A stretch of 56,776 nucleotides of DNA from Escherichia phage Seurat: sequence record NC_027378.1; one strand, 5' to 3'. The notes beneath the pieces are model-generated. The model saw only the letters and a program-made list of their open reading frames with translations. It was not told the DNA's origin and did not search any database. Below, in pieces: positions 43,175 to 49,556 of this stretch (positions are counted from its first letter, which is position 1; each line of letters starts with the position of its first letter). The position numbers and the translations under genes are program-made.

Positions 43175-43199
43175 AAAGGGCCGAAAGGCCCTTTATTTA
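43175..43199. terminator. bidirectional intrinsic terminator
   Basis: AAAGGGCC-gaaa-GGCCCTTT followed by TTTATTTAT on plus, T-rich on minus. Confidence 0.6.
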
Positions 43200-45539
43200 T
43201 TCCTCTTCACCTAAGTTTGCCATAATTCCTTCAACATCTTGCGTAATGCGCCAAGCTGCCCCAGTAAATCCCAGTTTAATAGTCTCCTCCCGTGTTACCG
43301 GAACAAGTGCACCCATAGCAACCATTTCCTTGATTGTAGACTCGATTGCAGCGGACAATCCGTGATGATAGTTTTTAAACGCGGACTTACTTGCAAGACG
43401 CGTAGTAATATCACCCCGCGTGATAATACCTTCTTTGCGCAAATCTACACGTTTAACTTTGACCCAGTCTTTAGTTAGATAATTCACACAGACCTGACAC
43501 ATAGTACGGATACGAGCTTCATCGTTAGTCCCGATACCGCCGCTATGCCATTCCTTCATAATAATGTCCTGTCCATGTCGCACAAAGTCCAAAGCCCATT
43601 GCACATGATATGTCTGTACCACCGGATTGATCCAGTTTTCCCCAACTGCTAACAGGGCGGATAGACGTAACACCTTCAGGTGAGCACGGTTCCAGGGCTG
43701 ACGGATTGCTTCGTCTTTGGTTGCGTTAATATTACGGTCACATTCGTCGTTAAACTGATCACATAATGCTTCCGCTTCTGGACTAAACTGCACTTCAATA
43801 CTTTGATGCTTTGCCATTGCGACTAAGGTGTGGTTAACAAGATGGCACACCATATCACGCAAATGCTGATCCATTGTAGTCTGCTGGTTCTTGTTTAAAG
43901 GTGGTCGATCACCTTCATAGCGGACAACATGGAAACGGGATAAGAATCCATCCTCCATCATTTCACGGGTTAACGCTTCAAAAAACGTGTCCGGTGTTGT
44001 TTCGCCCATGATGCTATAGGCCACACCTTGTTGAGCTTCCGTATTATTAGCCTTATCAGAATAAGACATACCACCAACAATAGACATCTGACCGGACTTT
44101 TGATAAACATCGGTAAGATCATTCTTGAAGCTTTGCATCGGTGAACCTGCTGGCGCCGTAGCCATTGCTTTAATAATCTTACCAAACTCACCGTTCAAGT
44201 TGATAAAAGATTGTTTGTCTGCAAAAGATTTACGCAGTGCGGAGCCGGAAGCGCATCGGTCAAATGATACAAAGCTATGAATCTGCGGAAACGGTTCCTG
44301 AAGCTGGCTAACTATATTAGATAGACCACTGTTCAACGTTTCTTTACCAACACCAGAACGAGCAATAAGGACAAAATATCCATTAAGACCGGATTGAGGA
44401 ATCTGCCAAACCTTCCCGCATACGCCAGCCATAAATCCTAGTGCTGTCACAATAGAAATTTCTTTCACTGGTCGGACGGATGCCTTGTAGATGTACTTCG
44501 CAAGCTCCCCAGCAAGTCCCGGCGGCCAGTCAATGGCGGTTGCATCAATAGACGTACTTTCTGCAACTACGGTCTGCCCCTGTGTTGTTTCAACAGTTAC
44601 GGGCATTTCCGCTACCTGTTGCATTGCACTGTGTGCCGCTTGCATACGGGCAGCATAATCCCGCGCCAGCGCCGCTACGTTTTCCTGGGCAATGCGCTCA
44701 CGCTCCATGCGACCGCGACACATACGCAAGCAACGGTCAATATGAACATTGTTCTTATTAGCCTTCTCACGTTTGCCCAGTGCGCTATAACGGAACAGAC
44801 GACGACATTGCTCATTACTTTCCGTGTAAAATGCATACATAGAAATAAGGGCAAGGTCTGCTTCAGACTGGGAAGGGAATCCCATTTCAACCCATTCACC
44901 ATTGAATAGGCGTGCATACTTATCTCCGTTGTCCGCTTCAAGTGCACGCTGGTGAATAGTTGCATCGTCTTCTACCGGATCTTTTTCTACCAGTTCAATT
45001 TCATATGTCTTGCGCTGAAGATCAATTTCATTCACAAGCATAGTAAGATAATGATCGCGTTCGGCAACTGGTTTGTTATAGACAGGATTACCCGTGCAGA
45101 TAATAAAACGCTCCTGACTATAAACTTCGACACCATCACGTCGGCGACCTTTACCGATGTTTCCTCTTAACCACAGGTGAACGCCCAAGCCTGAGCGACT
45201 TACTTCGGTGTAAGTGTCGAACGCAGTCATGATCTGTTCGAAGCGACGCAATTGCTCCGGCGTAGTGTGCTTCTTGGGGTCCGGTTCATTGGTTGCGTTC
45301 TTCACATCCAGGTCGATGCAGGTGAACGGGTCTTGTGCAGTAAGCACGAAGCCAATATAAGGTTTATTGAAATGAGCGGCGCAACCTTTGGCAGCTTCAA
45401 ACGTCATAAGCATATCCGGATCGGTAACGTCCGCCGCCATCAAACGTCCAATATCGTTATCCCATACGAGCGGCTTTTTGTCCGTATCGGCGACAGCCCA
45501 TTGTGGGAAAGCTTTAATTTCAGCGGGAAACAGTTCCAT
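43197..45539 (-). CDS. DNA primase-polymerase (AEP-type) fused to a C-terminal helicase/NTPase
   Basis: N-terminal FTCIDLDV and SGLGVHLW primase motifs; PriCT-like SEADLALISMYAFYTE; Walker A LIARSGVGKET. Confidence 0.75.
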   Translation of the reverse strand: MELFPAEIKAFPQWAVADTDKKPLVWDNDIGRLMAADVTDPDMLMTFEAAKGCAAHFNKPYIGFVLTAQDPFTCIDLDVKNATNEPDPKKHTTPEQLRRFEQIMTAFDTYTEVSRSGLGVHLWLRGNIGKGRRRDGVEVYSQERFIICTGNPVYNKPVAERDHYLTMLVNEIDLQRKTYEIELVEKDPVEDDATIHQRALEADNGDKYARLFNGEWVEMGFPSQSEADLALISMYAFYTESNEQCRRLFRYSALGKREKANKNNVHIDRCLRMCRGRMERERIAQENVAALARDYAARMQAAHSAMQQVAEMPVTVETTQGQTVVAESTSIDATAIDWPPGLAGELAKYIYKASVRPVKEISIVTALGFMAGVCGKVWQIPQSGLNGYFVLIARSGVGKETLNSGLSNIVSQLQEPFPQIHSFVSFDRCASGSALRKSFADKQSFINLNGEFGKIIKAMATAPAGSPMQSFKNDLTDVYQKSGQMSIVGGMSYSDKANNTEAQQGVAYSIMGETTPDTFFEALTREMMEDGFLSRFHVVRYEGDRPPLNKNQQTTMDQHLRDMVCHLVNHTLVAMAKHQSIEVQFSPEAEALCDQFNDECDRNINATKDEAIRQPWNRAHLKVLRLSALLAVGENWINPVVQTYHVQWALDFVRHGQDIIMKEWHSGGIGTNDEARIRTMCQVCVNYLTKDWVKVKRVDLRKEGIITRGDITTRLASKSAFKNYHHGLSAAIESTIKEMVAMGALVPVTREETIKLGFTGAAWRITQDVEGIMANLGEEE

Positions 45540-47903: not shown

Positions 47904-48518
47904 TTAACCCTCCAAGCCGTTATATTTGCGCCAGGCGTAGAACTGAATGGCTACCGTCGTCCCGTTGTAAGAAGGCATTGCAGCTTTCATTTCTTTCAGC
48001 TCCGGCGTGCGGCCCAGTTCCTTCAGAAGCTTGTCGCCCATTGCCCACACTTCGGCAGTTTTTCCTTTCAGGGGCTTGCGAGCGCCATTTTTGAAATCAC
48101 AGCGAGCAGCTTTTACATCCTGTTTTGGCGCGGCAGCTTTTGGCTCTTCAATTTTGATTTCAGAAACCTGCGTGGCAGCTTTTGCGTGTTTCATATCTTT
48201 CTCTTCCTCCTGCTCCAGAGCTTCGAGGCAGCTTTTGACGATTTCCGGATTTACCATCGGGCGCAGTACCGAGACGCTGGCAGCTGGCGCGGCGGTCGGT
48301 GCCGGGACTTTCTGCTCCGGCTGTTGCGCTTTTTCGTGATCGCGAAGCACCTGAAGCACTTCCTTTTCGACAATGTAAAAACCGATGTCGTCCTGATGAA
48401 TTAACTGTTCGTGTGCGTCGCGTGCAACCTGACCCCAACGGTTCTTCAGGGCGCGGCGTGCATTCGTTTTCATGGTGTAACGCATTTTGTCCTGTTCGCG
48501 GTGAGTTACTTTAGACAT
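47904..48518 (-). CDS. hypothetical early protein
   Basis: 204 aa. Confidence 0.45.
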   Translation of the reverse strand: MSKVTHREQDKMRYTMKTNARRALKNRWGQVARDAHEQLIHQDDIGFYIVEKEVLQVLRDHEKAQQPEQKVPAPTAAPAASVSVLRPMVNPEIVKSCLEALEQEEEKDMKHAKAATQVSEIKIEEPKAAAPKQDVKAARCDFKNGARKPLKGKTAEVWAMGDKLLKELGRTPELKEMKAAMPSYNGTTVAIQFYAWRKYNGLEG

Positions 48519-48604: not shown

Positions 48605-49108
48605 TCAGCTATTTCTGATATTCTTTAGAGCTTGTGTACAAAAGAAAACATCCAGCAAAACAAGTTTTCCGTCTTTTACCGCCACATTGCGGGGACTGAT
48701 TTCAAACCACATTTGCGGACCAATATTAGCGCAAGCATCCAAAGCTTCCAGGAGCACATCTTTAATGTCTTGAGCCAGGTCGCTATTACTGAAAGCATCA
48801 TATAGATAGCTATAGTTGTCATATGTGTTACGCGGCATCTCTAACCCTGCGCACAAGCTGCGGAGTTGTTTATAGAGTGCGTATTGCTCAGGTTGTAAAG
48901 AGCTTTTTAAGCTGCGGACACGAGGGTAATAATCCATTTCGTAGACACCTGTGTCTATCATTGTGACATGGGGAAATAATTCATGCTCAGGAAACCATCC
49001 CCACGCCATGCATTCTTTAATAGGGTCGCAAGATTTTAGAAGTACGCGACCTGAGTCTAGAAGGTATGCCTTGGTGAAAGCGCCCTTGCCAATTAGTTTA
49101 GTAGCCAT
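48605..49108 (-). CDS. small protein kinase-like protein (atypical)
   Basis: Start reset to MATKL... with RBS AAGGAG; Gly-rich loop IGKGAFTKAY, VLLK, EISPRNV catalytic-loop-like, LLDVF DFG-like. Confidence 0.4.
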   Translation of the reverse strand: MATKLIGKGAFTKAYLLDSGRVLLKSCDPIKECMAWGWFPEHELFPHVTMIDTGVYEMDYYPRVRSLKSSLQPEQYALYKQLRSLCAGLEMPRNTYDNYSYLYDAFSNSDLAQDIKDVLLEALDACANIGPQMWFEISPRNVAVKDGKLVLLDVFFCTQALKNIRNS

Positions 49109-49441
49109 GTTGTGCTCCTTAATGTGGTTAAGTAGTATTGCTTTGTTGAAGTAATAATAGCCTTGCATCGTGATATTGAATAGGCCAAAAGTGCTATTTT
49201 AGATCACTATTACATCTACAGCTTTGCAGTAACGCTACGCTAAAAATGCAAAGTCTTACGTTTGCTAAACATGTAGATTTTGTGCACATCACTCTTAGTA
49301 CGTATAACGTCTATTATGTTAAATAGCTAACCTATTGATTTATGGTATGCCCTACGTGCGGTTGGATGAATGTCGTGTCTAAGTCTTTGTTTTAAAAGGT
49401 GCTAAAAATTTGATGGTGGAAAACTGTAAAAGTACATGTCA

Positions 49442-49471
49442 TTAACTGACATAAAATGTTGTCAGTATAAA
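49442..49471 (+). promoter_or_regulatory. candidate rightward promoter with a palindromic operator in the spacer
   Basis: TTAACT-N18-TATAAA; spacer holds CTGACAT-aaa-ATGTTGTCAG. Confidence 0.3.
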
Positions 49472-49556
49472 TGCCACGTTTGGCCTAGACATAGATCAAG
49501 TCATGTCGTACTATATAGTCAAAGGAAAGATAAAGCCGAAAGGCGGAGGAAATAAA

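Follow-up and report, generated by a model that had tools for sequence, protein, structure and literature searches.

A predicted core-only kinase-fold protein with a noncanonical active site at the head of the leftward gene block of Escherichia phage Seurat

The genome of Escherichia phage Seurat (NC_027378.1), analyzed here as a single stretch of 56,776 nucleotides (nt; the window), carries on its minus strand a small gene that belongs to PHROG 11084, a family labeled as being of "unknown function," and that encodes a protein with a predicted kinase-like fold. The open reading frame (ORF) listing of the window gives a 187-amino-acid (aa) ORF at 48605..49168 on the minus strand, within which an ATG at 49108 opens a 167-aa protein that begins MATKLIGKGAFTKAY (MATKL). 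This start and an AAGGAG ribosome-binding site had been picked out in an earlier reading of the DNA letters (the sequence-only reading), and both are present where that reading had placed them. The short start is favored because VogelGryff bas25_0068 is annotated with an identical 504-nt coding sequence (98.2% aa identity to the window protein) and because homologues in unrelated phages start 1 to 4 residues ahead of K-L-I-G-K-G. An in-frame ATG farther upstream, at 49168, would add 20 aa (MQGYYYFNKAILLNHIKEHN), and it is preserved, with the frame open, in VogelGryff and in an ENA contig. This ATG is without a Shine-Dalgarno sequence. An N-terminally extended isoform may be made from it, although the short form is favored. 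The G+C content of the gene (43.5%) matches that of the window (44.6%). The gene and the motifs that it encodes are as follows.

48605..49108 (stop codon included), minus strand: coding sequence of the 167-aa predicted minimal kinase-fold protein (bas25_0068 homologue, PHROG 11084), from the ORF, the PHROG match, and the AlphaFold2 model
49120..49115, minus strand: Shine-Dalgarno AAGGAG, with a 6-nt spacer to the ATG at 49108, from the sequence
49064..49093, minus strand: putative glycine-rich loop (G-loop) IGKGAFTKAY, residues 6 to 15, between strands β1 and β2, aligning with LGNGHFSAAY of T7 gp0.7
49031..49048, minus strand: predicted strand β3, RVLLKS, residues 21 to 26, from the model and conservation
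49013..49018, minus strand: Lys31-Glu32, at the start of a short helix αC; the sole conserved lysine of the N-lobe and a candidate relocated ATP-binding lysine
48686..48706, minus strand: putative catalytic-loop equivalent FEISPRN, residues 135 to 141, from conservation and profile-profile alignment (hhalign)
48644..48658, minus strand: LLDVF, residues 151 to 155, with Asp153 at the DFG (Mg-binding) position

The match to PHROG 11084 runs from end to end (E value of 2.9e-81, residues 3 to 167 on profile positions 2 to 168 of 170) and is the only PHROG match of the protein. We found 370 homologues in a database clustered at 90% identity. When 1.84 billion cluster representatives were searched with a profile, 726 matched at an E value of ≤1e-3 and 409 at ≤1e-10, so that at the 50% identity level the family comprises no fewer than 726 clusters. 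Almost all members are 155 to 200 aa long. The PHROG match, the 370 and 726 homologues, and the near-invariance of the G-loop, Glu136, Asn141, and Asp153 described below place the ORF far beyond chance. It is a real gene, and what the sequence-only reading observed at this locus is confirmed.

The AlphaFold2 model, built on a 34-sequence alignment, has a pLDDT score (predicted local distance difference test) of 95.7 and a predicted template modeling (pTM) score of 0.88. Its N-lobe consists of β1 (residues 4 to 8), the G-loop, β2 (12 to 16), β3 (21 to 26), a two-turn αC (29 to 35), β4 (49 to 52), and β5 (55 to 59), and it is followed by a helical insert with helices at residues 67 to 70, 73 to 87, 95 to 107, and 113 to 127. 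The C-terminal part is made up of β6 (133 to 135), the catalytic loop (136 to 141), β7 (142 to 145), β8 (148 to 151), Asp153, β9 (155 to 157), and a helix (158 to 166). This is the bilobal arrangement of the protein kinase-like (PKL) fold, in which a five-stranded N-lobe sheet and αC precede the catalytic and Mg-binding loops. The model contains no counterpart of the activation segment, the APE motif, or helices αF to αI. The chain ends 14 residues past Asp153, a stretch that holds only β9 and one 9-residue helix, and the description of the protein as minimal is borne out in the model by this early stop after the Mg-binding aspartate.

A Foldseek search of the PDB with this model returned the aminoglycoside phosphotransferase APH(2''), corramycin phosphotransferase, and MTR kinase at E values of 2e-4 to 2e-3 (probability of about 1), and protein kinases and RIO were also matched. 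Among the viral structures of BFVD, the model matched its own family (TM-score of 0.92) and then gp35 of Acinetobacter phage Presley (TM-score of 0.72, E value of 2e-7), followed by annotated kinases of the T7-like phages NahiliMali, SK1, Q19, fPS-53, and RSB1 (E values of 2e-5 to 2.5e-4). A fold unrelated to kinases would have counted against the sequence-only reading, and the model passes this check; its confidence, together with structural matches to kinases, RIO, APH, and gp0.7-type proteins, makes a kinase-like fold almost certain at the level of structure prediction.

Conservation was assessed in a set of 148 sequences consisting of the query and 147 representatives at 50% identity. Within the proposed G-loop, Gly7 (139/148), Gly9 (145/148), and Phe11 (142/148) are near-invariant and Tyr15 is frequent (125/148), which, along with the alignment to the T7 gp0.7 loop, upholds the assignment of IGKGAFTKAY. 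Glu136 is found in every one of the 148 sequences at the position of the catalytic aspartate, where T7 gp0.7 and Presley gp35 have an aligned aspartate, and it is followed by Ser138 (138/148), Pro139 and Arg140 (141/148), and Asn141 (146/148). The proposal that EISPRN is a catalytic loop with Glu in place of Asp therefore stands, and the sequence-only reading was right to flag the substitution, which is invariant. LLDVF likewise occupies the DFG position, as had been suggested, with Asp153 conserved in 147 of the 148 sequences and lying 12 residues past Asn141. The spacing from Glu136 to Asn141 (5 residues) and from Asn141 to Asp153 (12 residues) is canonical; in T7 gp0.7, the corresponding distances are 5 (Asp195 to Asn200) and 13 (Asn200 to Asp213), and the counterparts in the protein kinase PKA are Asp166, Asn171, and Asp184.

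The reading of "VLLK" as a β3 lysine did not survive this comparison. Val22 is conserved in 136 of the 148 sequences, but Lys25 is a lysine in only 46, and the canonical position falls instead on the hydrophobic Leu24, which is always L, I, or V in the family and which hhalign aligns with the canonical lysine of Presley gp35 (RCIKV). The lysine that is conserved is Lys31 (144/148), next to Glu32 (131/148), and we infer from the alignment that Lys31 substitutes for the β3 lysine. The Lys-Glu pair, FEISPRN, and the missing β3 lysine are all retained in members of only 28% identity. Judged from the sequences, this is the pattern expected of a working active site and not of a decayed pseudokinase. 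Overall, the sequence-only interpretation is partly supported: it was correct as to the fold and the small, minimal form of the protein and wrong about the β3 lysine.

The kinase gp0.7 of phage T7 is one of the nearest known counterparts. In an AlphaFold2 model of gp0.7 (pLDDT of 79.5), the elements from residue 70 to about 240 follow one another as in the window protein: both models run β1-β2-β3-αC-β4-β5-helices-β6-catalytic loop-β7-β8-Asp-β9-helix, and neither has an activation segment or helices αF to αI. The core of the gp0.7 model ends about 30 residues past Asp213, ahead of long C-terminal helices. The two proteins also have in common the G-loop pattern G-x-G-x-F-S/T-x-A-Y and the D/E-x4-N … D spacing, and in T7-like phages both are encoded in the class I early region, 5' of the RNA polymerase gene. 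However, they fall into different families, PHROG 11084 for the window protein and phrog_2828 (PF27024) for gp0.7; the 352-aa kinase of phage Mysterion matches phrog_2828. The window protein also has no 70-residue N-terminal extension and no C-terminal shutoff/nucleic-acid-binding domain, and its residues at the positions of Lys93 and Asp195 are Leu and Glu. The gp0.7 kinase (T7K) is described as having a C-terminal shutoff/DNA-binding domain (10.1101/2024.12.20.629319).

Comparison by hhalign of a 138-sequence profile of the family with a 14-sequence profile of the gp0.7 core gave a score of 27.3 (P = 0.0018; probability of 14.7%) over 133 colinear columns, in which the G-loops are paired with each other, FEISPRN with FDMHSGN, and LLD with ITD; the G-loop block contributes most of the score. 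When the gp0.7 alignment was block-shuffled 30 times, the best score was 25.3. At the sequence level, the link of PHROG 11084 to gp0.7 is thus suggestive only; the link is structural and architectural and is not one of family membership. Furthermore, Dickeya phages of the genus Aarhusvirus encode both proteins side by side, so PHROG 11084 and gp0.7 are not simply orthologues.

Presley gp35, the closest structure in BFVD outside the family, is likewise a compact, stand-alone protein with a predicted core-only kinase fold. It aligns with PHROG 11084 over 153 columns (hhalign probability of 87%, P = 4e-6). Its alignment with gp0.7 has a P value of 0.003; across the N-lobe the two are 29% identical and have a PNVYD motif in common. 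In profile comparisons, gp35 appears as a bridge between PHROG 11084 and T7 gp0.7. It differs from the window protein in retaining both the β3 lysine (RCIKV) and the catalytic aspartate (FDGYKRSN) and represents a core-only kinase fold of a second type. The Leu24/Glu136 state of PHROG 11084 looks derived, given that the canonical Lys and Asp are present in gp35 as well as in gp0.7. The gp35 protein (L012:17268-17906; 212 aa) is uncharacterized and comes from an N4-like phage, in which its gene lies among replication genes, between those for a helicase and a DNA polymerase.

Among other kinases, NleH/OspG and RIO/Bud32 are comparable in that their kinase domains are very small and lack both an activation loop and the GHI subdomain. 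They keep the β3 lysine, the HxD catalytic aspartate, and an αF-like helix, and PDB profile and Pfam searches found no sequence similarity between them and the window protein. APH(2'') and related small-molecule kinases, the best PDB matches (E value of 2e-4), resemble the window protein in their helical insert and in the lack of an activation segment. In contrast to it, they are about 300 aa long and have the Brenner motif HxDxxxxN and, at the C terminus, a helical subdomain that binds the substrate; the TM-score comes to only about 0.43 when normalized to the query. The window protein has F-E-I-S-P-R-N in place of the Brenner motif and no such subdomain, and the likeness to APH and choline kinases is at the fold level only.

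The window is the genome of a Seuratvirus (Queuovirinae) with about 93% identity to VogelGryff/Bas25 across the region of the gene. Its genes form three blocks: structural genes on the plus strand as far as about 20.9 kb, a long block on the minus strand from 21.1 to 49.1 kb that includes the primase gene (43197..45539), and small plus-strand genes from 49.5 kb. The kinase-fold gene had been described as the first gene of the leftward block, and its position agrees with this description, as a 394-nt divergent region sets it off from the rightward genes. Two features lie in this region.

49109..49502, no strand assigned: divergent intergenic region of 394 nt between the leftward block and the rightward small-gene block, from the ORF layout
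49109..49215, minus strand: conserved upstream block, putative promoter or 5' leader, with near-100% identity in three phages; contains TATTCA-17-TATTAT

The stretch of about 110 nt immediately 5' of the start is near-identical in three phages (the window, L001:5890-6000, and L011:3890-4000), and the remaining intergenic sequence is variable. As this block is conserved while the proteins encoded downstream of it have diverged to 67% aa identity, it is probably regulatory, serving as a promoter or a 5' leader. A relaxed sigma70 scan gives a weak candidate within it, TATTCA-17 nt-TATTAT at 49182..49154, with 8 of 12 matches. A search of the intergenic region for repeats and operators found only short repeats at chance level, and a tRNA search of the window found none. 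The genes adjoining the kinase-fold gene all belong to PHROGs of unknown function. The next gene downstream (47904-48518, minus strand) encodes a 204-aa protein of phrog_22313, also of unknown function, with a central stretch rich in Pro, Ala, Glu, and Lys, and it is kept in Seuratvirus relatives without the kinase-like gene.

Among the Queuovirinae of the phage collection, the kinase-fold gene was found in VogelGryff only. In CAjan and CSP1C, other small genes occupy the slot 5' of the conserved 204-aa gene, and in CAjan a homing endonuclease gene is inserted just 3' of that gene (L010:1008-1490), a further indication that the leftward block is variable at its head. A gene in CSP1C that carries the name "serine/theronin preotein kinase" (CSP1C_068, L009:2504-2653) was rejected as an annotation artifact; it is a 49-aa ORF unrelated to the kinase-fold gene, in a record with other implausible names on tiny ORFs (maltose-binding protein, Hfq, and coproporphyrinogen oxidase). 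A syntenic copy of the kinase-fold gene, with 67% identity, is present in a 59-kb metagenomic contig. Beyond these relatives, homologues of about 50% identity occur in the T7-like groups Kayfunavirus, Aarhusvirus, and Molineuxvirinae, and homologues of 33 to 45% identity occur in phages of Cellulophaga, Aeromonas, and Pseudomonas (including Otagovirus). Escherichia phage ZG49 encodes a full-length member (L042:1310-1834) and, about 100 nt farther on, a 95-aa ORF (L042:1932-2219) that corresponds to the C-terminal half only (profile positions 90 to 173), with FEISPRN and LVDCFF intact; this ORF is, as far as its sequence indicates, a partial tandem duplication or a remnant. Fusion partners were sought in the longer members (P0129, P0137, P0188, P0248, P0264, and others), which contain no Pfam domains and were uninformative. 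JSS1_004, considered as a possible member, was rejected as a 367-aa homologue of gp0.7.

Across 33 viral loci of the family recovered from IMG/VR, a T7-type RNA polymerase gene lies 1 to 3.5 kb downstream on the same strand in 12, which is the class I early position that holds ocr and gene 0.7 in T7. A gp0.7-type kinase is found within 6 kb in only 3 of the 33 loci, all from Dickeya phages, and in 9 of the 12 polymerase-linked loci, as in Citrobacter phage SH5, the mini-protein is the sole kinase-fold gene seen in the early region. One GC-rich locus (IMGVR_UViG_3300045738_001144, L045:242-6633) encodes the domain as residues 871 to 1055, at the C terminus of a 1,078-aa ORF (1,030 aa in the JGI call). 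The body of this fused protein has homologues of 843 to 1,097 aa (P0389 to P0392) with other C-terminal tails or none, and a tblastn search of phages with the N-terminal body found no match. The ORF overlaps the stop of a 1,051-aa ORF with matches to PHROGs for DarB-like antirestriction, helicase, and methyltransferase proteins, and it precedes a serine recombinase gene. The arrangement, a single case, resembles the polyvalent anti-defense proteins of phages and plasmids, and by this analogy the layout looks like that of a polyvalent protein or of effector cargo. As for precedent, T7 gp0.7 and JSS1_004 are documented as kinases with broad counter-defense activity (10.1101/2024.12.20.629319; PMC12345140). 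Taken together, the position upstream of the RNA polymerase gene, the fused arrangement, and the precedent of gp0.7 and JSS1_004 lead us to infer a host-directed early function as the most economical reading.

The reading that we place first, and to which we give an even chance, is that the protein is an active minimal phosphotransferase used for host takeover or counter-defense. The protein would then be little more than a protein-kinase catalytic core, self-contained and probably competent in phosphotransfer. ATP would lie under the Gly7-x-Gly9-x-Phe11 loop and against Val22, Lys31 at the start of αC would stand in for the absent β3 lysine, Asn141 and Asp153 would hold Mg2+, and Glu136 would act as the general base in place of the catalytic aspartate. 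Expressed from the front of the leftward operon, the enzyme would phosphorylate host targets, most likely proteins, and would thereby aid takeover or blunt an anti-phage defense, as the kinase core of T7 gp0.7 does. Of the separate parts of this reading, the binding of ATP and transfer of phosphate are somewhat favored by the conserved motifs; protein substrates, given activity, are fairly likely; and a role in takeover or counter-defense is likewise somewhat favored. By analogy with the T7 kinase, host components would probably be what is phosphorylated.

Several observations weigh against this reading. At the active site, Glu136 takes the place of the PKL catalytic aspartate and Leu24 that of the PKL β3 lysine; to our knowledge, no characterized kinase uses Glu at the catalytic-Asp position, and the roles assigned here to Lys31 and Glu136 are read from their places in the sequence. 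The best PDB matches of the model are small-molecule kinases and not protein kinases. Most Seuratvirus relatives are without the gene, which is therefore dispensable, and between the gene and the divergent block, a consensus scan found no sigma70 promoter that would drive leftward transcription. In addition, the profile score against gp0.7 comes mostly from the G-loop alone, and sequence methods link PHROG 11084 to no kinase family. Pfam searches at E values of ≤10 gave nothing for the protein and no kinase family in sets of 34 and 138 members, NCBIfam gave no match for the family, and searches of all PDB sequences with phmmer and the 138-sequence profile gave nothing relevant.

The family hidden Markov models of Pkinase and its relatives were not matched in the same Pfam searches, nor, assuming that the scanned Pfam includes that model, was Kinase-PolyVal (presumably PF18762) in the protein or the 138 members; DUF6206 matched 2 to 4 members weakly, at E values of about 0.02. 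PADLOC gave no match, and BLASTP gave no alignment with T7 gp0.7 or the gp0.7-type kinase of Mysterion. Precomputed Pfam assignments are empty for 120 homologues among the matches listed, whereas gp0.7 relatives carry PF27024. In hhalign comparisons with single sequences of PKA and APH(3')-IIIa, only the PKA G-loop was aligned, and nothing meaningful was obtained for APH(3')-IIIa. The lack of a kinase signal in Pfam, NCBIfam, and PDB sequence searches is what would be seen if the kinase-like motifs were a chance resemblance in an unrelated fold, an explanation that the predicted structure already effectively refutes.

A more serious alternative, although a rather unlikely one, is that the protein is a pseudokinase or nucleotide-binding scaffold that has kept the fold, has lost phosphotransfer, and acts by binding and blocking a host factor, possibly in an ATP-dependent manner. 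Loss of the β3 lysine and the catalytic aspartate is the usual hallmark of a pseudokinase, and Leu24 and Glu136 occupy exactly these positions, where Presley gp35 and T7 gp0.7 have K and D; the model also lacks a substrate-docking lobe. However, Glu136, Asn141, Asp153, Gly7/Gly9, and Lys31 are near-invariant down to 28% identity, and residues of this kind typically drift in pseudokinases. The exchange of Asp for Glu is chemically conservative, and relocation of the lysine is known in active kinases (WNK). The strict conservation of Glu136, Asn141, Asp153, the Gly-loop, and Lys31 is the reason for favoring a working enzyme over a pseudokinase.

If the protein is an enzyme, its substrate might be a small molecule, with the protein acting as a kinase of the APH or choline-kinase type on a metabolite, a toxin resembling an antibiotic, a signal derived from a nucleotide, or an RNA or nucleotide. 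This would account for APH(2''), corramycin phosphotransferase, and MTR kinase being the top PDB matches, and an insert between the hinge and the catalytic loop, combined with the lack of an activation segment, is typical of such kinases. We consider it distinctly unlikely, as the closest annotated viral structures are protein kinases of the gp0.7 type, HxDxxxxN is absent and F-E-I-S-P-R-N is found instead, none of the 138 members has a Pfam match to APH or choline kinase, and the model has no C-terminal helical substrate-binding subdomain. The fold may also have been repurposed for AMPylation or another nucleotidyl transfer, with the Glu136/Lys31 site reflecting a changed reaction. Kinase folds that carry out AMPylation or glutamylation are known (SelO and SidJ), and the active site here is both noncanonical and strictly conserved. 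However, the Glu/Asn/Asp spacing fits the geometry of phosphotransfer and no data point to such a reaction specifically, which makes it very improbable.

PHROG 11084 is a family of predicted core-only phage kinases with a rewired active site, of which we found no description in the literature searched: searches for phrog_11084, bas25_0068, and the GenBank protein identifiers returned no mention, and the literature on Kayfunavirus, Seuratvirus, and HIDEN-SEQ contained nothing specific on the family. A few GenBank annotators have already placed the label "serine/threonine kinase" on some of its members. In its boldest form, which we put forward only tentatively, the proposal is that PHROG 11084 is the smallest self-sufficient active protein kinase known (about 160 residues), with a Glu base and with the lysine moved from β3 to αC, and that it serves as a stand-in for the gp0.7 core, providing broad, hyper-phosphorylating counter-defense in T7-like, SP6-like, Seuratvirus, Otagovirus, and Cellulophaga phages.

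Recent work has shown that many bacterial defense systems can be disarmed at once by phage kinases, as with T7 gp0.7 and JSS1_004, and only the gp0.7 family has been studied. The present analysis assigns a predicted kinase fold to a large family of "unknown function" without a Pfam model, one that holds a gp0.7-like early position in many T7-like phages without gp0.7. If the protein is active, it would set a lower size limit for a working kinase and would indicate that a Glu base and a relocated lysine can support catalysis, which would be of interest to kinase enzymology and protein design. It would also provide a new and easily testable candidate for counter-defense in Bas25, a phage of the BASEL collection.

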